A DNA stretch of 64,000 nucleotides from assembly GCA_038087875.1 (NCBI GenBank), contig CM075995.1:310001-374000 (forward strand). The letters run 5' to 3'. Below the pieces are notes generated by a model. That model saw nothing but the letters and a program-made list of their open reading frames with translations, ran no database searches and had not been told where the DNA came from. Source of the DNA: Malacoraja senta (Eukaryota). The position numbers and the translations under genes were made by a program. Position 1 is the first letter of the stretch, and the number at the start of each line of letters is the position of its first letter. Shown here piece by piece: positions 5,767 to 29,208 of this stretch.

Positions 5767-7354
5767 CTGGCAGGAGAAAATAAACTTAGTAAAGACACCT
5801 TCATGGAAACATTTCAAAAAACACCACATTATCACTTCACGTTTCACACGACTTGGAACAAGGCACGCGTCATTTTGTGTTTGATCAAATTTATGCACAC
5901 GTCAAAAATGAACAGACAAAACTGGCACTTGTCCTGGCAAAACATTAATCGAATGGTAGTAATTTGAGACGCAATCTGGATAGCATGTAAGCAAATGAAT
6001 GGAAATGCTTTTCAATAGGGATTAAGTCATATTACATTCTGTTATAACAAAAAACAGCATTCGTTATTCCTGTAACATAAAACTGTCAAGTCAGTTTAGC
6101 GGTCTGCTTTGATTGAGAATCTTAAATGCCAGACATGGAACAGAAGCTAAAGTACCTGCAACCATCAAACTAAAAGGTAAACTCCAATACCCCAAGAGTT
6201 GTCACTTAACTGTTACCCAAAATTAGTATCAATAGACAATACACAATAGGTGCAGGAGTAGGCCATTTGGCCCTTCAAACCAACACCGCCATTCATTGTG
6301 ATCATGGCTGATCATCCCCAATCAGTACCCCCGTTCCTGCCTTCTCCCCATATCCCCTGACTCCACTATTTTTAAGAGCCCTATCTAGCTCTCTCTTGAA
6401 AGCATCCAGAGAACCTGCCTCCACCGCCCTCTGAGGCAAAGAATTCCACAGACTAGCGGAAGTATCATTTATACTTCCATTACTCAGTTATAATGGAACC
6501 AATCCTGCAATTGGAATCACTCTCTAAATTTCTTCCCAGCTGTTATCAGGCAACTGAACCATCCTACCAACAATTAGAGAGCAGTCCTGAGCTACTATCA
6601 ACCTATGTGGAGACCCTCGGACTATCTCTATCTTTGATCGGACTTTACTGGCATTATCTTGCACTAAACATCATTCACGTTATTCCCTTCATCATGTATC
6701 TGTACACTGTGGATGGCACGATTGTAATCATGTATTGTCTTTCCGTTAACTGGTCAGCAGGCAACAAAAGCTTTTCACTGTACCTCGGTACACGCGACAA
6801 TAAACTAAACTCAAACTAAAACTAGAATCCCATACCCCTGGAGTTTCCATTTAATTATTACCCCAAACTGGTATATTTTGCACTTCCATTCGGAGTTATA
6901 ATGAAATTAACTCTGCAAATAGGACTTCACCAGCAAACTGTTTATTCAAACATGGGCCAGATATTTCTTGGAATAAGCCCCTGATATTCAACATGATGCC
7001 AAACATGATGCCACATTAAACTAAGCTCAGTCTGCCTGTACATATCTGTCCAGTCCCTGCACTTCCATGTGCCTCTCCATAAGTTTTTATAAACACCACT
7101 ATCGTATCTGCCTCCACCATCAACCTTAGCAATGCGTTCCAGGCCTCCACCACTTACTGTGCAAAAAACTTGCCTCGCATTTCTCCGTTAAAACCTTCCC
7201 GCTCTCACCTACGCCCTCCAGTGTTGGACATTTCCACCTTGAGGAAAAAGACTCTGACTGTGTACCTTATCTATGCCTCTCGTGATTTTTTTCTACTTCT
7301 ACCAAGTCTCCCCTCAACCTCCGACGTTCCCTTAATTATAAGCGAGTCCCTTAC

Positions 7355-7501
7355 CTGATAACTATCCAATGGTCTCTGTAGTTTGGTGCATCTGGCAGAA
7401 ATGCAACCTATGGAGACGGACAAAATAGCCTCCACCATCAGCGGCAACGTCCCCGAGTGCTGGACCGGTTTAACGATTACCTCAATCCTACGAGATTGCC
7501 C
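7355..7501 (-). CDS. KIF13A: KIF13A exon (GQSRRIEVIVKPVQHSGTLPLMVEAILSVSIGC...LDSYQ), 147 nt
   Basis: Inside ORF 7271-7531; atcag| and |gtaagg boundaries; phase 0/0. Confidence 0.96.
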
Positions 7502-7774
7502 CTGATTATAAACACACACACACACACACACACCTCAAGTTAACTGAGCTCAACAATGTAATAAAAGTATAAAATTAATTCTTACTATCAGAATCAAAAC
7601 TCCACAGAACTCTATGCAGAGGTTTACGAAATAGAACTCTGATAATTCAATGTCATAAATAACTCATGTTTATACCTAACATTTAACGTGGAAAAACATT
7701 CCAGGACTATTACTTCACGAGATGCAATGAAACAAAAATGGATAACAATTAGTTAACATTTTTTGCAGGTACTT

Positions 7775-8535
7775 GGCTCCTTGAAAGTGGAGTCACAGGC
7801 AGATAGGGTGGTCAAAAATGCTTCTTGGCCTTCATCAGTCAGAGTATTGAGAATAGAAGTTGGGAGGTCCTATTGCAGTTATACAAGATGTTGGTGAGGC
7901 CACATTCAGAATATTGTAGGTAGACAAAAATGCTGGAGAAACTCAGCGGGTGGGGCAGCATCTATGGAGCGAAGGAAATAGGCAAAGTTTCGGGCCGAAA
8001 CCCTTCTTCAGAATATTGTGTTAAGTTTTGGGCACCATGTTATAGGAAAGATGTTGTCAAGCTGGACAGGGCGCAGAGCAGGTTTACGAAGATGTTGCCT
8101 GGACAAGGGCCTGAGCTATAGGGAGAGGTTTAGCAGGTTAGGATTCCATTCCTTGGAGTGCAGGTGGATGAGGGGGTGATTTTATAGAGATGTACAAAAT
8201 CATGAGAGGAAAAGATCAGGTAAACGCACAAGAGTTTCTTGCCCAGAGTAGAGGAATCAAGAATGAGAGGACATAGGTTTATGATGAGGGGGGAAGAGAT
8301 TTAAGAGGAATCTGAGGGATACCATTTTTACACAAAGGGTGGTGGGTGTATGGACAATCTGCCAAAGGAGGTAGATGAGGCAGGGACTATAGCAATGTTT
8401 AAGAAGCATTTAGACCGGTACATGGATAGGATAGGTTTAGAGTGGTATGGGCCAAATGCAGGTAGATGCGACTAGTGCAGATTGGACATGTTGGTCGGTG
8501 TAGGCCTGTTTCCACATTGTATGACTATGACTCTA
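7775..8535 (+). mobile_element. CR1/HER1-like LINE of a second subfamily (3' tail shared with the SINEs), interrupted by a Penelope-derived arm
   Basis: LVRPHSEYC..FWAPCYRKDVVKL; ends ggcctgtttccacattgtatgactatgactc. Confidence 0.85.
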
Positions 8536-8815
8536 AACAATCTATTGATCATTATTGTAAAATGTCTGTCATTGGTTTTAGCCACTTGCATTTAGAGTCA
8601 GAGAGTCACAGAGATACAGGCCCTTCAGCCCAACTTGCCCACACTGGCCAACATGCCCCAGCCACACTTGTCCCACCTGCCCATGTTTGGCCCATATCCC
8701 TCCAAACCTGTCCTATCCACGTTCCTGTCTAACTATTAAATGTTGAGATATTCCATGTCTCAACTACCTAAACATGACCATTTCGCATAAATCCTCTCCT
8801 CAATTCGCAAAGTAC

Positions 8816-8948
8816 CTGTCTAATCTGGAAGACGCCGCCAGTGTTGACATCTTTGGCGAGAGACACCTCCACTGCTGTGTATTCTCCCATTTCGTTCAGC
8901 TCCTGCAATGAGATCCCCATCTCAATCCGACGTGTCACCTCACTCCAC
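8816..8948 (-). CDS. KIF13A: KIF13A exon (R-WSEVTRRIEMGISLQELNEMGEY...GGVFQIRQ), 133 nt
   Basis: Inside ORF 8768-8968; aacag| and |gtactt boundaries; phase 2/0. Confidence 0.95.
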
Positions 8949-8996
8949 CTGTTGCAACGGAAAACCAATCACACGGGGTAAGAGATCCAAGTATCT

Positions 8997-9325
8997 CGGT
9001 CACGGTGGCGCAGCGGTGGCACAAGTTGCTGCCTTACAGCGATTGCAGCGCTGGAGACGCGAGTTCGATCCCGACTACGGGCGCTGTCTGTACGGAGTTT
9101 GTATGTTCTCCCCGTGACCTGCGTGGGTTTTCGCCGAGATCTTCGGTTTCCTCCCACACTCCAAAGACGCGCAGGTTTGTAGGTTAATTGGCTTGGTAAA
9201 TGTAAAAATTGACCCTAGCGGGTGTAGGATAGTGTTAATGTGCGGGGATCGCTGGTTGGCGCGGACCCGGTGGGCCGAAGGGCCTGTTTCCGCGCTGTAT
9301 CTCTAAACTAAACTAAACTAAACTA
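8997..9325 (+). mobile_element. tRNA-derived V-SINE (HE1-like), near full length; representative of ~20 copies (e.g. 1183-1470, 3474-3772, 13920-14225, 20885-21180, 22585-22865, 31965-32280, 38908-39312, 47110-47385, 49478-49725)
   Basis: A box tggcgcagcgg, B box gagttcgatcc, central gtttcctcccacactccaaagac core, LINE-shared gggccgaagggcctgtttcc tail and (taaac)n. Confidence 0.9.
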
Positions 9326-9937
9326 TTGCTACATGGCCAACAAAATCTGATAAGACAGAGCTCTTGTCTATTGCAGTCTGAAGAAGGGTCCTGATCCAAA
9401 ATATCGGAGACTTAAGAAGGATCAATGGTTAGTTAAGGTAGACATAAATGCTGGAGTAACTCAGCGGGTCAGGCAGCATCTCTGGAGAAAAACGGATGGG
9501 TGACGTTTTGGGTCAAGACCATTTTTCAGACCTGTTTACCTGACCTGTTCAGTTACTCCAGCATTTTGTGTCTATCTTTGGTATGAACCAGCATCTGCAG
9601 TTCCTTTCTACACTCAATGATTAGTTTAGCTTAGTTTAGTTTAGTTTCGTATCACGTGTAACGAGGTACAGTGAAAAGCTTTTGTTGCGTCTTAACCAGT
9701 CAGCGGAAAGACAATACGTGATTGCAATCGAGCCGTCCACAGTGTACAGATACATGATAAAGGGAATAACAGTTAGTGCAAGATAAAGTCCAGTGAATTC
9801 CATTTAGAGATAGTCCGTGGTCCTCCAATGAGGTAGATAGTAGCTCAGAACCACTCTCTAGTTGTTGGTGGAATGATGGTAGAAGGAGCAATAGGCAAAC
9901 TACGTAAGGGACTTATCCATTGAAGAATAGGTCGGTG

Positions 9938-10137
9938 NNNNNNNNNNNNNNNNNNNNNNNNNNNNNNNNNNNNNNNNNNNNNNNNNNNNNNNNNNNNNNN
10001 NNNNNNNNNNNNNNNNNNNNNNNNNNNNNNNNNNNNNNNNNNNNNNNNNNNNNNNNNNNNNNNNNNNNNNNNNNNNNNNNNNNNNNNNNNNNNNNNNNNN
10101 NNNNNNNNNNNNNNNNNNNNNNNNNNNNNNNNNNNNN
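9938..10137. other. Assembly gap (200 N)
   Basis: Run of N. Confidence 1.
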
Positions 10138-10607
10138 AACACAGAAACAGAGAATGATCCCTGGAATGGTGAACAGGAACACAGAAACGGAGAATGATCC
10201 CAGGAATGGTGAACAGGAACACAGAAACGGAGAATGATCCCAGGAATGGTGAACAGGAACACAGAAACAGAGAATGATCCCAGGAATGGTGAACAGGAAC
10301 ACAGAAACAGAGAATGATCCCAGGAATGGTGAACAGGAACACAGAAACAGAGAATGATCCCTGGAATGGTGAACAGGAACACAGAAACGGAGAATGATCC
10401 CAGGAATGGTGAACAGGAACACAGAAACGGAGAATGATCCCAGGAATGGTGAACAGGAACACAGAAACGGAGAATGATCCCAGGAATGGTGAACAGGAAC
10501 ACAGAAACAGAGAATGATCCCTGGAATGGTGAACAGGAACACAGAAACAGAGAATGATCCCTGGAATGGTGAACAGGAACACAGAAACGGAGAATGATCC
10601 CAGGAAT
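10138..10607 (+). repeat. 40-bp minisatellite, ~11.75 visible units (aacacagaaacRgagaatgatcccWggaatggtgaacagg)
   Basis: Exact 40-nt periodicity with two polymorphic positions; runs into the gap. Confidence 0.97.
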
Positions 10608-11594
10608 GAGTTGGGTTAACGTATGATGAGCGTTTGACAGCACTGGGCCTGTACTCGCTGGAGTTTAGAAGGATGAGGGAGGGGGGACCTTATTGAAACT
10701 TACCGAATAGTGAAAGGCCTGGATAGAGTAGACAATAGACAATAGGTGCAGGAGCAGGCCATTTGACCCTTCGAGCCAGCACAGCCATTCAATGTGATCA
10801 TGGCTGATCATCCCCAATCAGTACCCCCGTTCCTGCCTTCTCCCCATATCGCTTTACTTTGCTATTTTTAAGAGCCCTATCTAGCTCTCTCTTGAAAGCA
10901 TCCAGAGAACCTGCCTCCACCGCCCTCTGAGGCAGAGAATTCCACCGACTCACCACTCTCTGTGAGAAAAAGTGTTTCCTCGTCTCTGTTCTAAATGGCT
11001 TACTCCTTATTCTTAAGTGAGAATCTAGGAAAAGAGGTCATGGCCTCAGAATCCTTTAGGAAGGAGATGGGGAGGAATTTCTTTAGCCAGAGGGTGGTGA
11101 CTCTGTGGAATTCATTGCCACAGAAGGCTGTGGAGGCCAAGTCAAGGGATATTTTTAAGGCAGAGATAGATAGATTCTTGATTAGTACGGGTGTCAGGGG
11201 TTATGGGGAGAAGGCAGGAGAATGGGGTTAGGAGGGAGAGATAGATCAGCCATGATTGAATGGCGGAGTAGACTTGATGGGCCGAATGGCCTAATTCTGC
11301 TCCTATCACTTGTGGTAGGGGGATCGATAACAGGAGGGTGCAAATTTAAGGTGAAAGGAAGTTTAGTTTGGTTTATTGTCACGTGTACCGAGGTACAGTG
11401 AAAAGCTGTTGTTCCGTGCTATCCGGTCAGCGGAAAGACAATACATGATTACAATCGAGCCGTCCACAGTGTATAGATACTCTATACAGGGAATATCATG
11501 AATAACGTTCAGTGCAAGATAAAGTCCAGTAAAGTCCAATCAAAGAGAGTCTGAGGGTCTCGAATAGAGTGTTAAGGAGGGCCTAAAGAGAGGT

Positions 11595-11776
11595 TGACAA
11601 AAATGCTGGAGAAACTCAGCAGGTGAGGCAGCATCTATGGAGCGAAGGAAATAGGCAACGTTTCGGCCCGAAACGTCGCCTATTTCCTTCGCTCCATAGA
11701 TGCTGCCTCACCCGCTGAGTTTCTCCAGCATTTTTGTCTACCTTCGATTTTCCAGCATCTGCAGTTCCTTCTTAAA
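11595..11776. mobile_element. Fold-back Penelope-derived mini-element
   Basis: ~70-bp inverted arms plus family 3' tail; 13-bp TSD cctaaagagaggt at 11582-11594 and 11777-11789. Confidence 0.85.
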
Positions 11777-12284
11777 CCTAAAGAGAGGTAATTTTTTTAA
11801 ATACAGAGAATGGTTTCTGTCTAGAACACACACTGCCAAAGGAAGTGGTGGAATTACTCTGTTAAGACACACTCTTAAATGGCAGGCAGAGATGAATACA
11901 GACCTAATGTGGGCAAATGGGATTCATGTAGGTGGGCTAAAGGGTCACTGGTCAATTGTCACATGTGCCAACGTACAGTAGCATTTTACTTGCACGCAGT
12001 TCAGTAAAGTATTACCATACCTAAGCACAATCCCCGATTAACAAAGTGTACAGAAATAGCCCACTGAGACCGCATGCAAGAGGCGGCAAGATTTGGTGGC
12101 GTTTACAAAGACCAGCCCGCGCTCCAGGTCCTGTGAGCGGGAGCCTGATCCAGGCGAGCCCCTGGCCGCTGCGGGGCCTCCGGCCGTCGCCTTCCCTTGG
12201 ACTTGCGAACCAACATCCCTCTACTCGCCCGTCCACCCTCTGTGCCCCAGCGGAGGGGGGGCACTGTTGACCCCGAGCTCAGAC

Positions 12285-13010
12285 AACACCACTAATCATC
12301 GATGGGGACTGTGTGGAAAGGGTGGCGGATTTCCGCTTCCTGGGAATCCACATTGAGGAGGACCTGACTTGGAGCGTGAACACCTCTGCGCTGCTGAAAA
12401 AGGTCCAGCAGAGACTGTACTTCCTGAGGGTGCTCAGGAAGAACAACATCACCCAGAGACTGCTGCTATCCTTTTATCGATGCTCAATTGAGAGCATCTC
12501 AACATACTGTGTATGCGTGTGGTACACCAGCTGCACAGCGGCTAAGAGGAAAGCGCTCCAGAGGGCAATTGACAACGCCCAGAAGATTATCGGCTGCCCT
12601 CTCCTCACCTTGAAGGACCTACACAGTTCCCACTGTCTCAAAAATCCAAGAAGATCATAAAGGACATTTTCCACCCGGACACTCCCTGTTTGAACTGCTG
12701 CCGTCAGGCAGACGGTACAGATCAATGAGGACAAGGACAAACAGACTCAAAAACAGTTTTTATCCCACAGCAATAAATACACTTAATGTAGCCACCAAAT
12801 TAGTGCAGGTGCGCTACATACCAAAGGGATTGTGAAATCGACAGAAGAATGTGTTTTTTTTCATGTTATTTATTTTAGTTGTTTATCTTAGACTTTTGCT
12901 CTAAGAAAATGTGTGCACTGACCTGGTTGGCATTTCTAATTTCGTTGTACATGTTTACATGTTATAATGACAATAAAGTATTCATTCATTCATTCATTCA
13001 TTCATTCAAT
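12285..13010 (+). mobile_element. Rex1/Babar-like LINE 3' fragment with (ttca)n tail
   Basis: ERVADFRFLGIHIEEDLTWS...QRLYFLRVL...IESISTY; aataaa followed by microsatellite tail. Confidence 0.85.
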
Positions 13011-13549
13011 AGACAATAGACAATAGGTGCAGGATCAGGCCATTTGGCCCTTCGAGCCAGCACCGCCATTCAATGTGATCATGGCAATCATCCCCAATCA
13101 GTACCCCGTTCCTGCCTTCTCCCCATATCCCCTGACTCCGCTATTTTCAAGAGCCCTATCTAGCTCTCTCTTGAAAGCATCCAGAGAACCGGCCTCTGCG
13201 GCAGAGAATTCCACAGACTTTTGCACTTTTCTATAATGCATTTTTAACTTTGCTTTTATTTTCTTTTAATTCTTCTATTTTATTTCATTTTATTATTTCA
13301 TTTTATTGTATGACATGTTTTTATGTGAAGCACTTTGAGTCTGCCTCGTGTATGAAATGTGCTATAGAAATAAAGTTGCAGTTGCAGACTCACCACTCTC
13401 TGTGAGAAAAAGTGTTTCCTCGTCTCCGTTCTAAATGGCTTACCCCTTATTCTTAAACTGTGCCCCTGGTCAGCATGGATGTGATGGGCCAAAGGGCCTG
13501 ATTCTGTGCTGTACGACCCCCCCACGTGAGTTCACAAGTGCCTGCTTAC

Positions 13550-13723
13550 CTTGCTGTGATCAAATTTCACCATGTACTGCACGGCCTTGTTTTTGAGCGA
13601 AGACCTATCCGGATTAACCATCGGGGGAGCGACTGTTTGCTCAGAGTGCTCCCAGAAGATGTATTGGCAGAATACAAAGTTTGATAAGTTGATCGGTAGT
13701 CCTGTAGCTTCTTTTATTTTTAC
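13550..13723 (-). CDS. KIF13A: KIF13A exon (VKIKEATGLPINLSNFVFCQYIFW...KFDHSK), 174 nt
   Basis: Manual translation; gacag| and |gtaagc boundaries; phase 0/0. Confidence 0.95.
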
Positions 13724-14380
13724 CTGTCGAGATAGAGCGACAAACTGAGGAGCTTCTCACCAAAACAAAATATTGAGTATAATAACATTACTGGTGACAA
13801 TGCATACACATAGTCAGGCTTATGCAGCAACAGCACAGAAATAGGCCCTCTGGCCCTACTTGCCACGTCTAAGCTGCCTATGTTTGGCCCATATTCCTCT
13901 AAACCTTTCCAATCCATTTAGTTTAGTCTTGTTTTGAGATGCAGCGTGGAAATTGGCCCTTCGGCCCTTCGGCCCACACCGGCCAGCGATCCCCGCACGT
14001 TAACACTATCCTAAAGCAAACTAGGGTAAATTTACAATTATTCCAAGCCAATTAACCAACAAACCTATGCGTCTTTTGTCCGAAACCAGAGATTCCGGAG
14101 AAAACCCATGCAGGTCACGGGGAGAAGGTACAAACTCCATAAAGACAAGCACCCGTAGTCAGGATCAAACCCAGTTCTCTGGCTCTGTAAGGCTGCAACT
14201 CTACTGCTGCGCACCGTAACGCCCTAAACTGGACAAACAAACTTTTTATTTCCAAATTTGAAATTTTACTTCAGCACTTGCTGTGAATTGTTCATGGACT
14301 GCTTATAAACATTGAGTTTTCAAGTTGCAGGAAAGAGGTAGCAGCATGTTATAGGAAAGATGTTGTCAAGCTGGAAAGGG

Positions 14381-15180
14381 TATAGTGGCAGATTATCTCC
14401 AGAGATCCAGCCCGATCTTCTGGCCCTCTTCTTTGGGACTGATTCTACCACCTCCTGTCTGTAGGTAGCTTTCGACTCGATATAGTGGCAGATTATTATA
14501 TCGTTCAAGGAATTGCTCCCTCCAGCCACTAGGAGAAAACACGGGGTAAGGAGATAATGTCGTTTTACGCGTGGGAGCTCTCTACGAGACATACAAAGCC
14601 GTCGAAAGATAAATCTTCCCAAACACTGTCTCTTGATTAATAGTTTCTTTATTGTCGAAGTAAAACAGTATGAGATTCATCCAAACTCCTTCTTGTTCTT
14701 CATCTTAGTGTTACTCGTAAACTTTTAATAAAACTTCTCTCCACGTTAAGGGCCTGTCCCACTTTCACGACCTAATTCACGACCTCAGCCCTTGACTCAT
14801 ACTCGCAACATGGTCGTCACGAGATCGTAGGAGGTCGTAGGCAGGTCGTGATGCTAGTCGTAGGTACTCGTGGCATCAAGTAGGTCGGGGCGTTTTTTCT
14901 AGCCTGATGAAAAATGTCCACGAGTAAAAAAGGTCGTGAATGGGTCATGAAAGTGGGACAGGCCCTTTAGAGAGCTCCGAATGGTCGAAAGATATGCCTT
15001 CCCGCCATGTTTCCTACGAACTAAACTAAAATACTACAAGCTTCTGCCCAAGAATCCCAGCAGCAAACACGCCTCCGACTACGTAATAAATCCCACCCAC
15101 ATAATAATTACAGGCAGACAACATTTAAAGGCAAATGCCATAATTTAAGGCACACAAAATTAAGCCAAATGGCCACTACA
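14381..15180 (-). mobile_element. Probable solo LTR inserted in a CR1 fragment; itself contains a MITE
   Basis: Inverted termini tatagtggc...gccactaca (TG..CA-like, one end TA); 5-bp TSD aaggg at 14376-14380 and 15181-15185 splitting a CR1 sequence; minus-strand AATAAA near 14650. Confidence 0.72.
14749..14966. mobile_element. MITE with AGGGCCTGTCCCACT TIRs (PIF/Harbinger-like; Kolobok not excluded)
   Basis: Terminal inverted repeats; TTA on both flanks. Confidence 0.85.
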
Positions 15181-15427
15181 AAGGGTGCAGGAAGATTTAC
15201 GAGGATGTTGCCAGGACTCAAAGGCCTGAGCTAGAGGGAGAGGTTGGACAGACGAGGACTCTATTCATTGGAGCACAGGAGGTTAAGGGGTTACCCAAAA
15301 GAGGGGTACAAAATCATGAGAGGAATAAATCAGGTAAACGCACAGAGTCTCTTGCCCAGAGTAGGGGAAAACAGAGGACATAGGTTTAAGGTGAGGGGGG
15401 GAAAGATTTAATAGGAACCTGAAGGGT

Positions 15428-15897
15428 TCTTCAGCGCGTCGTCCACAGAGAGCAGAAGATTATTGGGACACAGCTACCAGCCTTGGAGGGCATCTACTAC
15501 ACACATTGCCTTAGGAAGGCCGTCAGCATCCACAAAGACTCCTCACACCCTTGTAATGGACTGTTCGAACTCCTACCTTCTGGCAGATGTTACAAGGCCT
15601 TCTACACCCGCACCTCCAGACTCAGGAACAGCTTCATCCCCAGAGCTATCGCTGCTCTGAACCGGCCCCTGCTGAGTGCCCCCCACCCCATGAACTCTCC
15701 CTCGGATGATCACGTCGCACATCGACCCGGCACAGACATATTTGCACTTTAGACTGTTTTACTGTTCTTTTAAAAAAATAAATCATGTTTCTCGGTGTAT
15801 CTAAATTTTATGACATCGGATGGAAGCTGCATACCAAATCTCTTTGAACCTACGTGCAATGACAATAAAATATATTATTATTATTATTATTATTATT
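15428..15897 (+). mobile_element. Rex1/Babar-like LINE 3' fragment with (tat)n tail, nested in a CR1 copy
   Basis: KDSSHPCNGLFELLPSGR...RLRNSFIPRAI; aagggt duplicated at the flanks. Confidence 0.8.
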
Positions 15898-16964
15898 AAG
15901 GGTAACTATTTTTACTATTAACTATTAAACTATTAAATGATGGTGGGTGTATGGAACAAGCTGCCGGAGGAGGGAGTTGAGGCAGGTGCTATCACAATGT
16001 ATAAGAAGCATTTAGATGGGTACACGGATACAATAGGTTTCGAAGGATAGGTGCCAAACGCAGGTTGGTGGGACTAGTGCAGATGGGACATGTTGGTCGG
16101 AGGGACATGTTGGTCGGGTGGGCATGTTGGGCCCAAGGGCGTTTCCACACTGTATGACTCAATGACTCCAACTCTGGTATTAAGCTTCGTGTTGTGCCGC
16201 ATAGCTAGCGGAAAACTTGATGGTGATCCCTCAGCACCCAATCATTGATTGAGAGATACAGCACGGAAACAGGCCCAACAGCAAAAAACGATTCCAAGCC
16301 GATCATCGACCACCCATTCACACTAGTTCTATGTTATCCCACTCTTGCATCCACTCCCTGAACACACTTGGGAAAATGTCTAGAGTCCAATTAACCTACA
16401 ATCCCACAGGTCTTTGCAATGCAGGAAGAAGCTGGAGCACCCGGAGGAAACCCGCGTTGTCACGGGGAGAACGTGCGAACTCCACACAGGCTACACTCGA
16501 AGTCAGGATCGAACCCGAGTCTATGGCGCTGTGAGGCAGCAGGTCGACCAGCTAAAATTTGTAGGAAGGAACTGCAGATGCTGGCTGACACTGAAGACGG
16601 ACACTAAATGCTGGAGTAACTCGGTGGGGCAGGCCTGACCCACTTACTGACTCCAGCTTTTTGTGTCGATCTTAGCTCGACTAGCTGATCTTGTTTCAAA
16701 GGACAAGCCTTCAATTTTATTACTGCTGCAGCTTTGTTTTTCGTAACCGCCTTCTCATTCTGCAGATCACTGTTCTGCAGTTTTGCCAATCATATATAAC
16801 CACTCAGAAAGCTGGAACCTGCAATGGCACTGTGATATTTGCCAATGTATTATTGAGTAGGCTTAAAACAAAACAGCTGACAGTGGAGGGTCATTATGCA
16901 GCTTGTTTGCAAATCTTGTGCTTAGCGTTTTCCTCAAAAAAGGATGATATAACTTGATACAAAG

Positions 16965-17770
16965 TTACCCACTTTGGTGGCAAAAACAGGAAAGCAGACT
17001 ATTATCTAAATGGTGGCCGATTAGGAAATGGGGAGATGCAGCGAGACCTGGGTGTCATGGTACACCAGTCATTGAAAGTAGGCATGCAGGTGCAGCAGGC
17101 AGTGAAGAAAGCGAATGGTATGTTAGCTTTTATAGCAAAAAGATTTGAGTATAGGAGCAGGGAGGTTCTACTGCAGTTGTACAGGGTCTTGGTGAGACCA
17201 CACCTGGAGTATTGTGTACAGTTTTGGTCTCCAAATCTGAGGAAGGACATTATAGCCATAGAGGGAGTGCAAAGAAGGTTCACCAGACTGATTCCTGGGA
17301 TGTCAGGACTTTCATATGAAGAAAGACTGGATAGACTTGGCTTATACTCGCTAGAATTTAGGATATTGAGAGGGGATCTTATAGAAACGTACAAAATTCT
17401 TATGGGGTTGGACAGGCTAGATGCAGGAAGATTGTTCCCGATGTTGGGGAAGTCCAGGACAAGGGGTCACAGCTTAAGGATAAGGGGGAAATCCTTTAAG
17501 ACCGAGATGAGGAAAAACTTTTTCACACAGAGAGTGGTGAATCTCTGGAACTCTCTGCCACAGAGGGTAGTTGAGGCCAGTTCATTGGCTATATTTAAGA
17601 GGGAGTTAGATGTGGCCCTTGTGGCTAAAGGGATCAGGGGGTATGGAGAGAAGGCAGGTACGGGATACTGAGTTGGATGATCAGCCATGATCATATTGAA
17701 TGGCGGTGCAGGCTCGAAGGGCCGAATGGCCTACTCCTGCACCTATTTTCTATGTATCTATGTATCTATA
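16965..17770 (+). mobile_element. CR1-clade LINE 3' fragment
   Basis: ORF 17036-17671 (LVRPHLEYCVQFWSP...RGHS..FFTQRVVNLWNSLP); 3' UTR and tail. Confidence 0.93.
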
Positions 17771-19947
17771 CTCTGCATTGCAGTATTATTCTGGAATATC
17801 ATAGACATGGCATAAGATAAGTTCATAAGTTGCAGGGGCAGAATTAGGCCATTCGGCCCATCAGGTCTACCCCGCCACTCCGTCATTCAATCATGGCTGA
17901 TCTATTTTTCCCTTTCAACCCGATTCCCCTGCCTTCTCCCCGTAACCCCTGACAACCCGTACCAATCAAGAATCTGTCAACCCGCGCCTTCAAAATATCC
18001 ATTCACTTGGCCTCCACAGCCTTCTGTGGCAATTAATTCCATAGATTCACCACCCTCTGCCTAAAGATAACAGAGAGTTTTACACACTGCCTGGTCCATC
18101 ACAAGTACTGACTTCCCCACCATCAAAGGGATCTATAGATGGCACTGGCTCAAAAAGACAGACAGCATCATTCAAAGGGCCGAATGGCCTCCTCCTGCAC
18201 CTATTGCCTATTGATCCACATCACACAGGCCATGCTCTTATTTTGCTCCTATCATCAGAAATGTGGTGCAGGAGTATGAAATCCATGGCCACCAGGTTCA
18301 ATAATAGCTTCTTCTAAACAAACACTGAGCTCGAAAACCACACAACACTAACCTTAGCACCTATGAACTTCTAGGGACTGCCTTTAGGAGTGCTATATAT
18401 TTTAATATTTTTGTATAATGTTTAATATTTTTCTTTGCTCTCACCCCTGCCACCCAACACTTCTTGGTGATATTAAAAATTATCATCTGATGAAGACAAT
18501 ATGCATGCAATAAGTCAATTACATGCTTAAATCGTAAGCATTTAATTACAATTTAATTAATTGTAATTAATTCACCAAATTAAAATCTGCAAGAGATTTT
18601 TTCATGGTCAATGTTCTCAATAGTCAACCGTTATTCCGGGGATTTGCAATGGCAATGATGCTTTGTCAACGAGAGGCATTTAAAAACATAGAAAAATAGA
18701 AAATAGGTGGATGAGTAGGCCATTCGTCCCTTCGAGCCAGCACGGCCATTCAATATGATCATGGCTGGTCATCATAAATCAGTACCCCGTTCCTGCTTTC
18801 CCCCCCATATTCCTTGATTCTGTTAGCCCTAAGAGCTAAATCTAACTCTCTCTTGAAAACATCCAGTGAATTGGCCTCCACTGCCTTCTGTGGCAGAGAA
18901 TTCCACAGATTCACAACTCTCTGGGTGAAAAAGTATTTCCTCATCTCAGTCCTAAATGGCCAACCTCTTATTCTTACATTGTGACCCCTGGTTCAGGACT
19001 CCCCCAACATGGGGAACATTTTTCCTGCATCTAGGCCTGTCCAATCCCTTAAGAATTCTATATGTTTCTATAAGATATCCTCTCATCCTTCTAAATTTCA
19101 GTGAATATAAGCCCAGTCAATCTATTCTTTCATCATATGTCAGTCCTGCCATCCCAGGAATTAACATGGTGAACCTTAAAAGGAATGAAAGGGAATTAAC
19201 CTGGTGAACCATAAAATAATTTTGGATAGGCACATGGATGTGCAGAGAGTGGAGGGATAGGGTTTATGTCCAGGCAGAACAGTCTGGAGTTGGCATCATA
19301 AGTTAAGACACAAAATGCTGGAGTAATCTCTGGAGAGAAGGATTGGGTGAGGTTTCGGGTCGAGACCCTTCTTCAGTCTGAGAGTCAGGGAGGTATGGGA
19401 AGATACAGAACAAAGCCTTTCACAAAATAATGAAATTTTAATGGTATAGGAAGGAACTGCAGAAGCTGGTTTACACTGAAGATAGACACAAAATGCTGGA
19501 GTAATTCAGGGGGACAGGCAACATCTCTGGAGAGAAGGAAAGGGTAACATTTCGGGTCGAGACTGTCTTCAGTCTTGGCATCGTGTTCAGCACAGACAGG
19601 TGTGGGCCGAAGGGCCTGTCCTTGTGCTCCAATGTTCTATATTCTATATTCATGTTCATAAGGGAGAGGAGCTGAATTAGCCCATTCGGCCCATCGAGCA
19701 CTCCGCAAATTCAATTGCGGCTGATCTATCTTCCCCTCCTAACCCTATTTTCCTGCCTTCTCTCCATTAACCCTTGACACCCGTACTAATCAAGAATCTA
19801 TCTCTGCCTTAAAAATATCCACTGACTTGGCCTCCACAGCCGCCTATGGCAAAGAATTCCACAGACTGACCACCCTCTGAATAAAGAAATCCCTCCTCAT
19901 CTACTTTCTACAGATCCGTTCCCGTTCTATATTCTATTCCCACTTAC

Positions 19948-20112
19948 CCTGCAGGTTAGTTTCCTTGCCATGTGCACGATGTCACCGTTGTTATCCATAA
20001 CTTCACAGCTCCCACTCTCACTCGAGTTCTCTGAAGAGTCATCGCCACCATCCAGACGTTCTGGAATCGCACCGTTAATGCGCATTACTTCAACATGAAG
20101 TCTCCCAGCGAC
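19948..20112 (-). CDS. KIF13A: KIF13A exon (VAGRLHVEVMRINGAIPERLDGGDDSSENSSESGS...KLTCR), 165 nt
   Basis: Manual translation; DDSSENSSESGS is typical of KIF13A; caag| and |gtaagt boundaries. Confidence 0.95.
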
Positions 20113-21318
20113 CTTGATTCAATTCAACAGGGGAAATGTTTACCATGTTACACATTTTAATTTTAGTTTAGTTAGACAGGTTAGTTTAGTTTAGAGATAC
20201 AGCGTGGAAACAGGCTCTTCGGCCTTCCGTGTCCACACCGACCACCGATCCACGCACATTAGCGCTACTCTATACACACTAGGGACAATTTTTTTTTTTT
20301 CCTCACAGAGAGTGGTGAGTCTGTGGAATTCTCTGCCACAGAAAGTAGTTGAGGCCAGTTCATTGGCTATATTTAAGAGGGAGTTAGATGTGGCCCTTGT
20401 GGCAAGAGGGATCAGGGGGTATGGAGAGAAGGCAGGTACAGGATACTGAGTTGGATGATCAGCCATGATCATATTGAATGGCCTACTCCTGCACCTATTT
20501 TCTATGTTTCTATGTTTTACACCTATACCAAGTCAATTAACCTACAAACCTGTACGTCTTTGGAGCGTGGGAGGAAACCGAAGATCTCGGAGAAAACCCA
20601 CAGGGTCGCGGGGAGAACGTACAAACTCCGTACAGACAACACCCGTCGTCGGGATCGAACCCGGGTCTCTGGTGCTGCAAGCGCCGTAAGGCAGCAACTC
20701 TACTGCTGCGCCACCGTGCAGCCCTGTTAGACTTTAGTTGGACAGGTACATGGATAGGACAGGTTTGGAGGCATATGGACCAACTGCGGGCAGGTGGGAC
20801 TAGTGTTGCTGGGACATGTTGGCCGGTGTGGTCAAGTTGGGTCGAAGGGCCTGTTTCCACACCGTATAATTCTATTACTCTAGTTTTTAGTTTAGGTTAG
20901 AGATACAGCGCGAAAACAGGCCAACCGAGTCTGCGCCGACCAGCGATCCCAGCACACTAACACTATCCAACAGACCCTAGGGACAATTTACAATTTTAAC
21001 CGAAGCCAATTAACCTACAAACCTGTACATCTTTGGAGTGCGCGGGGAAACCCGCGGAAAACCCACGCAGGTCACGGGGACAACGTACAAACGCCGTACA
21101 GGCAAGAACCCATGGTCAGGGTCGAAGCCGGGTCTCTGGCGCTGTAGGGAAGCAACTCTACCGCTGCGACACCGTGCCTCCTGCTGTTTGCCTCAGACTA
21201 AGGTCAAATCAAAGTACTTTCTCCACGATCATTTAGCTTTACATTAAGCAATCAAAGTATTATAGAAAATAAACACGGAACTTTAATAAACGGAAATAGA
21301 ATTTAAGAATATTTCAGG

Positions 21319-21570
21319 TACACAGTCTACACTCTTTATAACGGACCTCTTTAATTTTGTTTTCAAGAGTTAGATTTAGCTCTTAGGGCTAATGGAATTA
21401 AGGGATATGGGGAGAAAGCAGGAATGGGGTACTGATTTTGGATGATCAGCCATGATCATATTGATTGGTGTTGCTGGCTCGAAGGGTCGAATGGCCTACT
21501 CCTGGACCTATTTTCTATGTTTCTTTATAACTGATTTTGGTTATAATGGACGGAGTGTCCCCGCAGTAAT
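21319..21570 (+). mobile_element. Possible Tigger/pogo-like terminus interrupted by a CR1 3' fragment
   Basis: cagt..ctctttataacggac..ttataactga..ggttataatggac reiterated subterminal motif. Confidence 0.4.
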
Positions 21571-21737
21571 CAGACACCACTGTCTCTTTAAGAACACAGG
21601 CGGCTAGTTACACTACTGGAGGCATTGAAATTGACAAGCAATTGCTTTGATCGAGATGTGCATTGATACTCTATTAAACAATGTTTTAAACAGCCTTTGG
21701 TATTTTTAGTTTGCAGTAACAAATATACACTTATAAC

Positions 21738-22222
21738 ATGAGGTTAATCCCCACGATGGCGGGACTGTCATATGAGGAATGATTTGAAAGACTGGGCTTG
21801 TATTCACTGGAACTTAAAAGGATGAGAGAGGATCTTATAGAAACGTATAAGATTATGAAAGGACTGGACAAGCTAGATGCAGGAAAAATGGTCCCAATGT
21901 TGGGCGAGTCCAGAACCAGGGGCCACAGTCTAAGAATAAAGCGGAGGCCATTTAAAACTGAGATGAGAAAAAACTTTTTCACCCAGAGAGTTGTGAATTT
22001 GTGGAATTCTCTGCCACAGAAGGCAGTGGAGGCCAATTCACTGGATGAATTTAAAAGAGAGTTAAATAGAGCTCTAGGGGCTAGCGGAATCAAGGGATAT
22101 GGGGAGAAATCAGGCACGGGTTACTGATTGTGGATGATCAGCCATGATCACAATGAATGGCAGTGCAGGCTAGAACGGGTGAATGGCCTCCTCCTGCACC
22201 TATTTTCTATGTTTCTATGTTT
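21738..22222 (+). mobile_element. CR1-clade LINE 3' fragment
   Basis: ORF 21798-22127; tail. Confidence 0.9.
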
Positions 22223-22962
22223 AACTGTTAAAAATAACTCATTGTCTCATGGAGTGATCGCTAGATGGTTAGAGTGAATCCCAGTTTACATTTAGTTTAT
22301 TGTCATGTGTACCGAGGTACAGTGAAAAGCTTTTGTTGCGTGCTAACCAGTCAGCATGATTACAATCAATCCATTTACAGTGTATAGATACATGATAAGG
22401 GAATAATGTTTAGTGCAAGGTAAAGCCAGCAAATTCCGATCAAGGATAACTGGGTAGTAAGGTAATAATAATAGTATTTTCAGTTTGCAGTAACAAAGGT
22501 GCATTTATAACAGTTAAAAATAACTTTATTTTGTTACGTCATGGAGTGACCGCCAGGTGGTTGGAACTCATTCCTTACTCGGTTAGTTTAGTTTAGAGAT
22601 ACAGCGCGGAAACGGGCCCTTCGGCCCACCGAGTCCGCACCGACCAGCGATCCCCGCACATTAACACTACACACACACATTTACACCAAGCCAATTAACC
22701 GACAAACCTGTACGTCTTTGTAGTGTGGGAGGAAACCCACGCAGGTCATGGGGAGAACGTACAAACTCCATACAGACAAGCACCCGTAGTGAGGATTGAA
22801 CCAGAGTCTCCGGCGCTGTAGGTGGCGCTGCGCTGCCGCTCTACCGCTGCACCACCCTGCCGCCCAAACAGTGGACAATCGGCAATAACGGACACCATTC
22901 ATTCCCCCTCTATGGTCCGTTCTAAGGATGGTTATCTCTACACCATCTATGTCTTAATTCAC

Positions 22963-23112
22963 CTCTCCCTGCTGGCTGATGATGGGAACAGCATAATCCA
23001 GTTTAGCATCATGGTACAGACATTCCAGGAAGACGTTGGCTACGCCAATCAAGTTATGGTTTTCTTGAGCCTCGTAGAAAGGGTCGCCATGCTTGCTGAG
23101 AATTTTGTTGTA
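22963..23112 (-). CDS. KIF13A: KIF13A exon (YNKILSKHGDPFYEAQENHNLIGVANVFL...IISQQGE), 150 nt
   Basis: DPFYE..NHNLIGVA motif; gacag| and |gtgaat boundaries; phase 0/0. Confidence 0.95.
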
Positions 23113-23406
23113 CTGTCGTGGGATTAAAGGAATAACAATTAATAAATTACAGTGGGAAAGGAAGTTTCTCCAGCCCAGTCCCTTATTCAAACAGTTTTGC
23201 CAAGTGTGGAAATTCAATAATGCATGGAATCTATAAACACAAATCCTTATTCCATCATTGTATATTTATGCAACATTATGTCGGACAAAACCACTCTTAC
23301 ATGACAACTCTAATTGGTAAATGTCAACATATTATATTTAGCAAAGATGCGTGTTACAAATTCCTCCTCTCAAACAGTTCAGTATTCACGTGTTCCTTGC
23401 ACTCAC

Positions 23407-23553
23407 ATATTCAACCATGTCTTTCTCCTTCCAATCTTGATAGAGATCTCTCATATCAATCAATTTGTTCTCCAGTTTCTCGATTGCCCACACTTGGGTA
23501 CCTTTTCCCTTGCGTCGAACTTGGATGGCGGATTCGCTTACAATTGCTCCCCT
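23407..23553 (-). CDS. KIF13A: KIF13A exon (RGAIVSESAIQVRRKGKG...YQDWKEKDMVEY), 147 nt
   Basis: Inside ORF 23386-23607; acacag| and |gtgagt boundaries; phase 0/0. Confidence 0.94.
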
Positions 23554-23673
23554 CTGTGTTGATAGAGAACAGTAACGTTTTTCACTGTGCCTCGGTAGAC
23601 ATGACAATAAACCAAACTAAACTGAACTAAACTGATTCCATGCATGGAACAAACTGAATATCCAATCATTAAT

Positions 23674-23955
23674 AGCCCTGTCCCACGGTACGAGTTCATT
23701 CCAAGAGCTCTCCCGAGTTTAAAAAAAATCAAACTCGTGGTAAGCACGGAGAATGAACGTAGCGGGTACGTCAGAGCTCGGGGACGTCTCTTAGCGCTAA
23801 CGGCAGGTACTCGGGGAGACTCGCTAACGGCAGGTAAGCACGGGAACGTGAAGATTTTTCAACATGATGAGTGGCCATTACCGTAAATCTCCGAGTTCGA
23901 ATCAGGGCAAATTCGGGAGAACTCTTGGAATGAACTCGTACCGTGGGACAGGGGT
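23674..23955. mobile_element. MITE with ~40-bp TIRs (ccctgtcccacggtacgagttcattccaagag...)
   Basis: Long near-perfect inverted termini sharing the CCTGTCCCAC core. Confidence 0.8.
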
Positions 23956-26324
23956 TTAACTTGGAGAGTTTTCAAGAGAGAGTTAGATTTAGCTCTTAGG
24001 TCTAGGGGAATCAAGGGATATGGGGAGAAAGCCAGAACGGGGTACTGATTTTGGATGATCAGCCGTGATCATATTGAATGGCGGTGCTGGCTCGAAGGGC
24101 CGAATGGCCTACTCCTGCACCTATTGTCTATGTTTCTATCAAAGCAAGTTATCACAAAGTATTGGTGCAACGCTTTGCTCATCCACATCTAAAAGAAAGG
24201 TAAAATACAATACACATTGAACACAATATCTGAAACAAAGCATCATGGTTTGAAGGAGCAGATTCATCAGCATCTTTAGAGGGAATACAGACCAATTGTA
24301 CGAACATGGATAGAGCGGACGTGGAGAGGATGATTCCATTAGTGGGAGAGTCTAGGACTAGAGGTCAAAGAGTGGGAGAGTCGAGGACTAGAGGTCCTAG
24401 CCTCAGAATTAAAGGTTGTTCCTTTCAGAAGGAGATGAGGAGGAATTTATTTTGTCAGAGGGTGGTGAATCTGTGCAATTCATTGCCACAGAAGGCTGTG
24501 GAGGCCAAGTCAGTGGGTATCTTTTAAGGCATAGATAGATAGATTCTTGATTAGTACGGGTGTCCGGGGTTATGAGGAGAAGGCAGGAGAATGGGATTAG
24601 GAGGGAGAGACATATCAGCCATGATTAAATGGCGGAGTAGACCTGTTGGGCCGAATGGCCTAATTCTGCTCCTATCACTTATGAACTTATGAAACAAACT
24701 TGAATTATAAATTAGAGCCAAAACATGGAGTGAAAATCACAACGGACTGGAGGAGGGAACACTGAGTGGAAGGGTGGCAGTATCACAGGGGCTAGAGCCA
24801 CTGCTCACAGCTCCAGAGACTAAGGTTCAACCCTGACCTCAGCCGCTGAGTCTGTCAACTTGGTACCATCTCCCCGTGGCCATATGGGTTTCCTCCAGGT
24901 CCTTCAGTGTCCTCCTTCATCCCAAAGACCCAGAGTTTGGTGGATTCATTGCCCACTGTAAATTGCTACGAGTGTGTAGATGAACATTGCCGGTATAATA
25001 TAATAATAATAATAATAGATTTTATTTATGGGCGCCTTTCACAAAGTCTCAAGGACACCTTACAAAGTTTAACAAATAGTATAGAAACATGTAAACGGAA
25101 TGAAATAAATAGCAAAGACATCACCAGTACACAAATTAAAGATAGAATTAAATCCAAAAACAAAAATCAAAAACACAATATGGAAGGGCGAGTTGGGACG
25201 AAGGGCCTGTTTCCACACTGTATTACTCTATGAATGGGTGGGGGTGGGGGGAGTTGACTCGATAGGGAGGTAGAGGGAATAAAGTGGGATTTGTATCTGT
25301 GGGGTCACAGTTTAAGGATAAGGGGGAAGTCTTTTAGGACCGAGATGAGAAAAAAATAATTCACACAGAGAGTGGTGAATCTGTGGAATTCTCTGCCACA
25401 GAAAGTAGTTGAGGCCAGTTCATTGGCTATATTTAAGAGGGAGTTAAATGTGGCCCTTGTGGCTAAAGGGATCAGGGGGTATGGAGAGAAGGGAGGTGCA
25501 GGATACTGAGTTGGATGATCAGCCATGATCATATTGAATGGCAGTGCAGGCTCGAAGGGCCGAATGGCCTACTCCTGCACCTATTTTCTATGTTTCTATG
25601 TATAAGATTAGTGTGAATGGTTGGCATGGATGGATTCAGTAAACCTGTTGTTTCAGTGCTGCAAGACACCATAGAATAGAATAGAATAGAATAGAATGCC
25701 TTTTATTGTCATTCAAACAGCTTGGTTTGAACGAAATTGCATTTTCTACAGTTTACAAAAATAAACAAGACCCACACTTAACACACTTGTCCGAGCATAG
25801 AGTCGCAGAGCATGAAAGCAGGCCCTTCAGCCCCACCTGCCCATGCCAACAACATGCGCATCTACACTAGATATGCCCCAACACTGCAAGGTGTAATTTC
25901 CAGATTACTGAAGGGGTGTCTCTTGAAGTAACCAATGCAGATTTAAAGCATATTTTCCCCATAGAAAATGAATCAAAAAGTACCACCATAATATCTCTAT
26001 GAATAAAACAACATGTGAGCTCCACGTTGCACCCATTCAAGTTACAGAATTCCCCCTTACAAAATTCACCAATGACTACCCAAAACATTGGGATACGGAA
26101 TAAAATTTGCTCCTACTGAATTTATGTGGTAAAAGTAAATAAAGAAACGCAATACATAATTTTTTCAACTTGTGTTTCTTGACACATGTTGGCCAATGGT
26201 CCATATTTGCTACCCTCTTAACATGAGGATTACCTGTGCTGAATTGTCTGGGGTTTTCTACCTTGTGGAAGGAACTTAGAAGTAAAATAAACAAAGTTTC
26301 CTCCATATCACCATATCTCCATAC

Positions 26325-26852
26325 CAATTTGAGGAAGGACATTCTTGCTATTGAGGGAGTGCAGCGTAGGTTTACAAGGTTAATTCCCCGGATGGCGGGA
26401 CTGTCATATGCTGAGAGAATGGAGCAGCTGGGCTTGTACACTCTGGAGTTTAGAAGGATGAGAGGGTATCTCATTGAAACATATAAGATTGTTAAGGGCT
26501 TGGACACACGAGAGGCAGGAAACATGTTCTCGATGTTGGGGGAGTCCAGAACCAGGGGCCACAGTTTAAGAATAAGGAGTAAGCCATTTAGAACGGAGAC
26601 GAGGAAACACTTTTTCTCACAGAGAGTGGTGAGTCTGTGGAATTCTCTGCCTCAGAGGGTGGTGGAGGCGGGTTCTCTGGATGCTTTCAAGAGAGAGCTA
26701 GATAGAGCTCTTAAAAATAGCGGAGTCAGGGGATATGGGGAGAAGGCAGGAACAGGGTACTGATTGGGGATGCTCAGCCATGATCACATTGAATGGCGGT
26801 GCTGGCTCGAAGGGCCAAATGGCATACTCCTGCACCTATTGTCTATTGTCTA
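26325..26852 (+). mobile_element. CR1-clade LINE 3' fragment
   Basis: ORF 26236-26763 C-terminal part. Confidence 0.92.
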
Positions 26853-27795
26853 TTATCACGAATAATGGATTTGTTTTCACAAACTTGGATTGTTTTCTTT
26901 GTAGTGTCATTGGTTGAGGGGTTTAGAGGAGATGTGCGGGGCAAGTTTTGTTTTACACAGAGAGTGGTTGGTGTCAAGGGAGGTGCTGGAGGCAGAAACT
27001 GGGATGTCAGATTCCCTTCTCCGATTACACAGGTGAACTAGTTTGCATTTTCCACAGGCCAAAACAGGTCACCTTGGTCGGACCAGCAGCAAAATGAGCA
27101 GCGGGGCAAAATCTGACCCGTATTGATCAGGTATTGATCGTTGACCTTCAAAAGTGATGCATTTAACAAACCAATAGCCCATGATAATTGACAAAGGAAA
27201 ACAAGTCAATGTGTCCAAAATCATGAGAGGAATAGAGCAGGTGGATGCACAGAGTCTCTTGCCCACAATGGGGGAATCGAGGACCAGAGGACAGAGGTTA
27301 AAGGTGAAGGGGAAAAGATTTAATGGGAATCTGAGGGGTAACTTTTTCACACAAAGGGTGGTGGGTGTATGGAACGAGCTGCCAGGGGAGGTAATTGAGG
27401 CAGGGACTATTACATCGCTTATGAAACATTTAGACAGGTACATGGATAGGACAGGTTTAGAGGGATTTGGGCCCAACCCAGGCAGGTGGGACTAGTGTAG
27501 CTGGGACATGTGGGCCGGTGTGGGCAAGTTGGGCCGAAGGGCCTGCTTCCACATTGTAAGACTCTATGACTATCAGTCTGAAGAAGAGTCCCGACCCAAA
27601 GAGTCTGAAGAAGGGTTCCGACCCCAAACGTCACATGTCCATGTTCTCCAGAGATGCCGCCTGAGTTACACCAGAATTGGGTGTCCTTTTTTTTGTAAAC
27701 ATGCATCTGCGGGTCCTTGTTTCTACATGGAAAACAAATGTTGGCCGCCTTAAAATAATGATCAGTTTGGAAGCAACGTTGCGGAATCTGCCCAC

Positions 27796-27958
27796 CTTCC
27801 TGTTTGCGCTGAGATTTTCTGCTGGGATTTGCAATGTGACTTGGTAATCGGTCTGTTTATTCATCTCTTCTGCCAGGAAGTTGGCTTCTCTCACCAGAGC
27901 ATTGGCTCTGACGATTTGCTCTCTCAACTTCGCCAGGCTGTGACGGAAGAGTTGATCC
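27796..27958 (-). CDS. KIF13A: KIF13A exon (DQLFRHSLAKLREQIVRANALVREAN...LSANRK), 163 nt
   Basis: Inside ORF 27631-27999; ttgcag| and |gtgggc boundaries; phase 2/0. Confidence 0.96.
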
Positions 27959-29080: not shown

Positions 29081-29208
29081 ATTACCCAAAGATGCCAACT
29101 TGGTCAGCATGGGTCGAAGGGCCTGTTTCTGCACTGTTTCTCTAAATTAAACTAAACTAAAAAAGACAAGGTGGGCTGAAGGGTCTGTTTTCGTGCTCCC
29201 TGACATAC

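Follow-up and report, generated by a model that had tools for sequence, protein, structure and literature searches.

The insertions left by Penelope-like elements (PLEs) follow a recognizable layout, comprising pLTRs with an inverted pLTR next to them, in some cases a 31-bp tail, a target-site duplication (TSD) of 8-10 bp, and palindromes at the head-to-head junctions (PMC3846280). Inverted copies and the tail are described as general features of PLEs (PMC8557442, PMC8969392). Work with a purified anole PLE protein shows that the enzyme cleaves and extends both target strands, that hammerhead cleavage is not needed, and that two start sites are used whose spacing equals the tail (PMC11167929). 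Pairs of hammerhead motifs have been recorded 100-700 bp apart on opposite strands (PMC4209133). In transformed flies, new Penelope insertions were rearranged with inverted repeats, which were matched by siRNAs (PMC3681739). Non-LTR retrozymes have been reported in one chondrichthyan genome (bioRxiv 10.64898/2026.07.22.740005).

Six short fold-back copies of such an element were found in the 64-kb window analyzed here, i.e. the whole stretch of 64,000 nucleotides from Malacoraja senta. A preliminary description had presented them as potentially novel. The inverted-arm-plus-tail layout, the junction palindromes, and dsRNA from repeats of this kind have all been published (PMC3846280, PMC8557442, PMC11167929, PMC3681739). 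A partial literature search, with Dfam, Repbase, and supplements outside its scope, yielded no account of short fold-backs in cartilaginous fish. The parts of PMC5753468 and bioRxiv 10.1101/2025.06.08.657570 covered by this search held nothing further on fold-backs.

Fold-back copies in the introns of KIF13A

All six duplication-bounded fold-backs fall within introns of KIF13A. Each sits between exon matches to a skate KIF13A protein, which follow one another on the minus strand from 56082 down to 7277. The best named matches come from skates, pointing to a cartilaginous fish, probably a skate or ray, as the host. A 200-N gap is present at 9938-10137; residues 937-985 of KIF13A have no exon match in the window and may fall there. 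Coordinates of the copies are collected in Table 1. Positions within the element are counted from the hammerhead C3, with +1 corresponding to 60081 in the linear copy.

Table 1. Features of the window, with fold-back junctions given as inverted tailless arm / direct tailed arm.
Feature	Position	Strand	Junction	Remarks
KIF13A host gene	7277..56082	-		14 exon matches to skate KIF13A protein
Solo tailless arm	7905..8019	-		Runs from C3 to internal end; 13-bp duplication without mismatch; 4 other repeat copies match the empty site
Older fold-back (9.4 kb)	9422..9626	+	about -3 / +56	13-16-bp duplication, 2 mismatches in 16; score 10
Left TSD, 13 bp (11.6 kb)	11582..11594	+		Last 4 nt also fit element sequence at tailless end
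Fold-back insert, 182 bp (11.6 kb)	11595..11776		both arms inside 15-nt palindrome, +11 to +25; 7 nt microhomology	Between perfect 13-bp direct repeats
Inverted tailless Penelope-like 3' arm	11595..11666	-		Reaches upstream only to 3' half of stem II
Junction microhomology, 7 nt, GTTTCGG	11660..11666			First half of 15-nt palindrome
Direct arm	11667..11743	+		No CUGANGA, hence no ribozyme core
Unpaired 3' tail, 33 nt	11744..11776	+		The PLE 'tail' (PMC3846280, PMC11167929)
Right TSD, 13 bp	11777..11789	+		
Short older fold-back (16.6 kb)	16541..16686	-	+55 / +53	13-bp duplication, 2 mismatches; score 7
Young-subfamily fold-back (42.9 kb)	42821..42978	-	+34 / +60, with short inverted filler	14-bp duplication, 2 mismatches; score 8
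Solo tailless arm	43698..43804	+		Intact minimal hammerhead core; 12-bp duplication, 1 mismatch
Older fold-back (46.9 kb)	46861..47101	+	-4 / about +11 to +14, by eye (aligner ran through)	Perfect 13-bp duplication; score 13
Second young fold-back (52.1 kb)	52029..52257	+	+1 / +16	199-bp insert 52044-52242 between perfect 15-bp TSDs, 52029-52043 and 52243-52257; inverted tailless arm 52044-52133; tail to 52242
Long head-to-head pair	58537..59716			Both arms reach endonuclease-coding end; each split by a later repeat; no duplication found
Longer 5'-truncated linear copy	59728..60203	+		GIY-YIG C-terminal frame, pyrimidine-rich spacer, hammerhead (C3 at 60081), arm, tail; no convincing duplication found

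The two inserts at 11.6 and 52.1 kb had been described as near-perfect hairpins of 182 and 199 bp between direct repeats, with a 3' tail in common, and this was borne out. Their arms pair over 76 nt at 96% identity and 73 nt at 92% identity, respectively, and the shared tail lies outside the hairpin in both and measures 33 nt. Predicted folding energies are -142.3 kcal/mol (z -19.9) at 11.6 kb and -145.7 kcal/mol (z -19.0) at 52.1 kb, with none of 200 shuffles equally stable in either case. When only the inserts are folded, on the strand of the pre-mRNA, the energies are -143 and -132 kcal/mol. The two young copies are predicted to form duplexes of 64-76 bp in KIF13A pre-mRNA.

A score equal to that of a perfect 13-mer turned up once in 300 random position pairs. 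If the 52.1-kb insert is taken out in silico together with one of its repeats, a host repeat is restored that is present at four other sites in the window, and the 15-bp repeat of this insert is therefore a true target duplication; the corresponding empty-site check was blank at five of eight sites, for want of a further copy of their flanks in the window. The earlier claim of intronic hairpins with target duplications is supported. An assembly artefact was rejected in view of the duplications, the diverged arms, and the restored host repeat.

Five more degenerate fold-backs had also been proposed. Those at 9.4, 16.6, 42.9, and 46.9 kb are real, with duplications of 13-16 bp, but 31170-31345 proved to be a jumble of one tailed arm and short pieces with no duplication (score 3). 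Among the 300 random pairs, scores of at least 7, 8, and 10 were reached in 26, 8, and 2 cases; as this covers the scores at 16.6 kb (26/300) and 42.9 kb (8/300), the duplications of these two copies carry less weight. None was found around the copies at 31.2, 56.2, 58.5-59.7, 60.1, 62.1, 27.6, 19.5, 31.0, and 29.0 kb (scores 0-6).

Other short inverted structures are present in the window. At 55354-55445, a 46-nt inverted repeat at 96% identity with a perfect spacer consists of two abutting pieces of another repeat, for which the searches made found no Penelope derivation. Short elements with terminal inverted repeats starting AAGGGCCTGTCCCAC at 14748-14967, 45971-46333, and 61174-61428 are a candidate true MITE family.

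Parent element, junctions, and arm relationships

The hairpins end in the same arm and tail as the linear copy at 59728-60203, as had been noticed, and the reading frame of this copy is the C-terminus of a PLE GIY-YIG domain. The frame (59728-60057) shares 73% identity with the GIY-YIG end of P0001 and 54-60% with those of P0003-P0006, and another copy at 54162 displays the C..YIG part. A C-terminal GIY-YIG endonuclease with a CCHH motif next to the arm is a mark of EN+ PLEs, and the frame agrees with it. The fragment itself has no Pfam match, and the GIY-YIG Pfam matches of its relatives fall below the cut-off; a search of the window for a reverse transcriptase part found none. A CX2-5CxxC linker before the endonuclease is a trait of Neptune and Nematis (PMC8557442). 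Window copies stop short of this linker, which is present as CX4CxxC in P0003-P0006. Because these 54-60%-identical relatives carry it, the parent is probably Neptune-type rather than Poseidon.

Five hammerhead core-plus-stem matches were found in the window, against a mean of 0.02 in 50 shuffles, and 17 motifs could be aligned. Together with the GIY-YIG frame, these core matches support the Penelope origin and the minimal-hammerhead motif claimed earlier. Stem II is 89.7% paired across the 17 motifs, with no two-sided change and no covariation beyond that of shuffles. No Rfam family reached its gathering score in the whole window, and a search of 58500-60300 gave only a chance snoRNA match (E 8.5). 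Neither main hairpin is among the five core matches, and neither holds an intact core: CUGANGA is missing from both arms at 11.6 kb, and at 52.1 kb the inverted arm extends to C3 with a mutated core, the direct arm starting from stem II at 52133. On these grounds, an active ribozyme in the main hairpins was rejected as a candidate.

Just upstream of C3, the older subfamily has a pyrimidine tract, CTGAC, and CAG (19376-19392, 56286-56300, 58639-58655), which resembles a splice acceptor. The end of the Penelope intron in Drosophila virilis lies on the 5' side of helix I (PMC4209133). Such a sequence could explain the truncation hot spot at C3 described below.

In the preliminary description, the inversion point fell in stem II of both main hairpins and the hammerhead appeared as a stereotyped turning point. 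The inversion lies wholly inside stem II at 11.6 kb only, whereas at 52.1 kb this applies to the direct arm alone. Stem II is touched in at most three of the six copies: at 46.9 kb the end of the inverted arm lies some 4 nt upstream of C3 and the direct arm begins in or near stem II, and at 9.4, 16.6, and 42.9 kb the direct arm begins 53-60 nt downstream of C3, beyond the hammerhead. The 15-nt palindrome at the 11.6-kb junction spans stem II and the GAAAC box in its subfamily and occurs in linear form at 7.9 kb; the stem II variants of the 11.6- and 52.1-kb copies differ. Breakpoints shared between copies had been expected of a self-propagating family and a unique breakpoint in every copy of independent events. 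No junction is common to any of the 15 pairs among the six copies, three young ones included, and each copy has its own breakpoint within this one window.

Eleven of 30 arm alignments start between -4 and +2, including one aligner artefact, one that continues upstream, and two copies of one event. Three tailed arms (9539, 16632, 42905) have their starts at +53 to +60, where the segment AGATGCTG lies. This segment is complementary to CAGCATCT in the tail, pairing of the two is predicted in linear RNA, and it may be a second stop point.

The arms of a fold-back are not interchangeable. All six duplication-bounded fold-backs join a tailless inverted arm head-to-head to a tailed direct arm, and no two-tailed pair was found among the head-to-head pairs in the 30 alignments. 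The arm reaching further upstream is the tailless one in four units and the tailed one in one (11.6 kb), the arms being level in the remaining unit. At 52.1, 46.9, 9.4, and 42.9 kb, the inverted arm has extra upstream sequence and the direct arm an extra tail; since each arm has sequence that its mate lacks, neither was copied from the other in these four units.

A tree of 20 of the 27 arms (seven under 60 nt were dropped) is star-like, with mates ungrouped and left and right arms interleaved, and mates of one fold-back always belong to the same subfamily. The 52.1-kb inverted arm is nearer to the 7.9-kb solo copy (85/93) than to its own mate (67/77). These two tailless arms have a G to T change at +26 that is absent from the 52.1-kb direct arm. 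It is likely to be a parallel change at a CpG, because the two copies differ in stem II.

At 7.9 and 43.7 kb, the tailless end (+82 to +97) occurs by itself within a duplication, and is therefore a priming end rather than a truncation. Tailed ends (to about +124) are present in linear copies, e.g. at 29.0 and 60.1 kb. The copies form a length series from solo arms of 83-89 bp through hairpins of 120-215 bp to the pair reaching the endonuclease end.

Several longer copies have features of their own. The young linear copy at 59728-60203 comes directly behind an older copy, whose tailless end is at 59716, and looks as though it had been inserted at the tail boundary of that older element. Three longer copies (28695, 59147, 59235) are truncated within about 7 nt of one another near the end of the endonuclease frame, a possible truncation hot spot. 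Two copies of one composite (19366-19875 and 41673-42170) are 79% identical over 535 nt and have an identical junction; in both, part of another repeat is followed by a unit of hammerhead, arm, and tail, then by about 70 nt, and then by a second hammerhead. The composite would represent either a larger unit that was copied with a Penelope fragment inside it or a tandem of about 200 bp resembling a retrozyme.

Joints of the same modules were also sought in sequence runs, using the linear copy (59715-60270) as reference for four of the 21 runs listed. Three runs come from related organisms (0.40-0.53 of words in common; of the same or another species) and gave 139,848, 165,227, and 155,700 matching contigs; the fourth, of raw reads, gave only 4 reads. 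In the three related runs, 693, 905, and 804 contigs part from the reference at C3 and continue in flanks that are unrelated (agreement 0.33-0.34). This marks C3 as a hot spot of truncation, which a reference mismatch at 60080 exaggerates in part.

Among the 15 of 286 joints listed, direct tandem joints connect the tailless end to C3 (60173 to 60081) in at least 12, 24, and 8 contigs and the tailed end to C3 (60205 to 60081) in at least 8, 6, and 3. The inverted joints 60081/60113 and 60081/60117 were listed in at least 12, 15, and 12 and at least 2, 3, and 2 contigs, respectively. A stretch of reference mismatches lies beside the 60081/60113 class, which therefore lumps together true junctions that differ. 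All joint counts are lower bounds, and short contigs in high-copy repeats could mask a very common fixed junction. The comparison supports modular, varied joining. Pattern scans of viral, metagenome, and genome contigs gave no match, and a shorter pattern found eight loci there, each a microbial sequence that matches by chance over about 20-25 nt.

Origin of the fold-backs

The preliminary description left a choice between a self-propagating family and a stereotyped integration by-product. With no junction shared between copies, the by-product is favored and the family less so. We put the probability at about three in four that the hairpins are integration by-products of a Penelope-like element, formed anew at each insertion by priming from both target strands. 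Each hairpin is probably dead on arrival.

On the two-strand reading, which is based on six fully read copies in one window, the GIY-YIG nuclease would nick the target strands with a stagger of 13-15 nt. The 3'-OH of the bottom-strand nick would prime at the distal start and yield the direct tailed arm, and that of the top-strand nick would prime about 33 nt further in and yield the inverted tailless arm. Synthesis of both cDNAs would break off early, in many cases at the hammerhead's 5' edge or within stem II. The free cDNA ends would then be joined, through the palindromic microhomology at 11.6 kb and with 0-2 matching bases or filler elsewhere, producing the observed unit inside a single duplication. 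The hammerhead may serve here as a stopping and annealing landmark with no active role.

The pairing of a tailless with a tailed arm in all six copies suggests that the two priming events are coupled. One speculative arrangement, drawn from these six copies, is that two polymerases move in file on one RNA, the inner leading and the outer displacing; it is proposed because the tailless-plus-tailed pairing is constant and the tailless arm tends to reach further upstream. Several points count against two-strand priming. The in vitro study saw no difference between strands in start site, and so does not explain the tail asymmetry of all six copies, and snap-back of a cDNA would account just as well for the 11.6-kb copy taken by itself. 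The recurrent inverted joint, the closeness of the 52.1-kb inverted arm to the 7.9-kb solo copy, and the star-like arm tree also weigh against it.

Snap-back would belong to a route in which one cDNA, or an antisense RNA as proposed by Arkhipova et al. 2013 (PMC3846280), primes itself at a palindrome and copies itself before or during integration. Palindromes at inverted junctions in rotifers have been interpreted in this way (PMC3846280), and the 11.6-kb junction, with its 7-nt microhomology in a 15-nt palindrome and its inverted arm contained in the direct arm, fits this route. We nevertheless consider it quite unlikely, given that the arms at 52.1, 46.9, 9.4, and 42.9 kb each have unique sequence and so did not template one another, and that it gives no reason for the inverted arm to terminate where solo copies do.

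It is unlikely that the fold-backs are instead a self-propagating, non-autonomous hairpin retroposon, some of whose copies would be transcribed and re-inserted whole, by tail priming, with the Penelope enzyme. The tailless end is also found solitary with duplications, the template would be a 64-76-bp duplex, and the junctions differ throughout, even among the three young copies. The recurrent inverted joint class, in at least 12-15 contigs per run among the 15 of 286 joints listed, is in favor of such a retroposon, but it pools differing junctions beside the reference mismatches. Also in its favor are the one change common to two tailless arms, the apparent copying of a Penelope fragment within a larger unit in the window, and the report that pLTR sequence is enough for mobilization in trans (PMC3846280). 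The 52.1- and 46.9-kb copies are moreover alike in form, with an inverted arm to C3 and a direct arm from stem II. That this subset is a self-copying, ribozyme-less fold-back retroposon on Penelope enzymes is doubtful; if true, very many long dsRNA hairpins would be seeded in shark and ray introns.

The fold-backs had also been called MITE-like, and their short length and strong hairpin agree with this. The label does not hold, as the tailed end has an unpaired 33-nt tail in place of a terminal inverted repeat, and duplications vary from 12 to 16 bp. Class II MITEs are thus very improbable, and equally so a rearrangement after insertion, either by deletion between inverted pLTRs or by two insertions at one site. 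There are long head-to-head pairs whose middle part could be lost, and microhomology-mediated deletion of Penelope copies has been reported (PMC3846280). In contrast, a single duplication encloses each whole unit, and solo and tandem copies are truncated at the same places with no inverted partner.

With the layout already known, the finding is mostly ordinary, and its value lies in a very large natural data set of minimal insertions. If the two-primer reading is true, these insertions preserve the two start sites, the distance between the nicks, and the points at which the cDNAs stopped. They could then be used to test how PLEs finish integration, a matter left open by the 2024 in vitro paper (PMC11167929). 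Six fold-backs in 64 kb and 140,000-165,000 matching contigs per related run predict a possibly large load of intronic dsRNA in cartilaginous fish. For annotation, fold-back stubs of this kind could be misfiled as MITEs.

Comparison with known systems

In the twin priming of L1 elements, both target strands prime cDNA, the products are united by microhomology end joining, and one duplication surrounds the unit; the inverted segment is an upstream one that does not overlap the other. The fold-backs differ in that their cDNAs overlap, giving an inverted duplication. They share with MITEs (PMC8969392) a short, non-coding, hairpin-forming, and abundant nature. Unlike MITEs, they lack inverted repeats that are terminal at both ends, a short duplication of fixed length, and a common internal structure, and they derive from a retroelement parent.

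Non-LTR retrozymes (bioRxiv 10.64898/2026.07.22.740005) are likewise non-coding, hammerhead-related, and PLE-derived. As described there, they are direct tandem units with a full ribozyme each, whereas the fold-backs are inverted and their cores incomplete. Identity with retrozymes was rejected for this reason, although direct tandem joints of the same modules do occur in the related runs. The motifs in the window resemble the minimal hammerheads of type I that metazoan PLEs carry (Cervera and de la Pena 2014, PMC4209133) in CUGANGA, GAAA, and GUC, in the extra base before stem II, in G10.1-C11.1, and in the palindromic 15.2-16.2. They differ in that the main hairpins have no intact core, stem I is poorly formed, and there is no Rfam match.

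Another close comparison is with Poseidon PAc from Anolis carolinensis (Frangieh et al. 2024, PMC11167929), which also has two start sites bounding the tail and the hammerhead upstream. By eye, no copy in the window starts at the hammerhead cleavage site, as in the PAc reads (PMC11167929). Joined fold-back products do not figure among those recovered in the sections of the PAc work considered (PMC11167929). Targets in the window are 46-77% AT, unlike those of PAc, and the parent here is probably Neptune-type.

The fold-backs most resemble the canonical EN+ PLE unit. An inverted, 5'-truncated pLTR with a 30-40-bp tail at one end and a TSD of variable length, by which EN+ PLEs are recognized, is present in all six. 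Like the canonical unit, they are head-to-head with a tail at one end (33 nt here, 31 bp in Pen2a_Av), lie within a single duplication, have a palindrome at some junctions, and show heavy 5' truncation and tandem variants. They depart from rotifer PLEs in their duplications (12-16 bp, compared with 8-10 bp), and from the canonical unit in their high density (six in 64 kb) and in measuring 120-215 bp with neither an ORF nor a full pLTR, so that the arms close into a hairpin. Judged by this comparison of layouts, the fold-back is the published Penelope arrangement in its shortest form.
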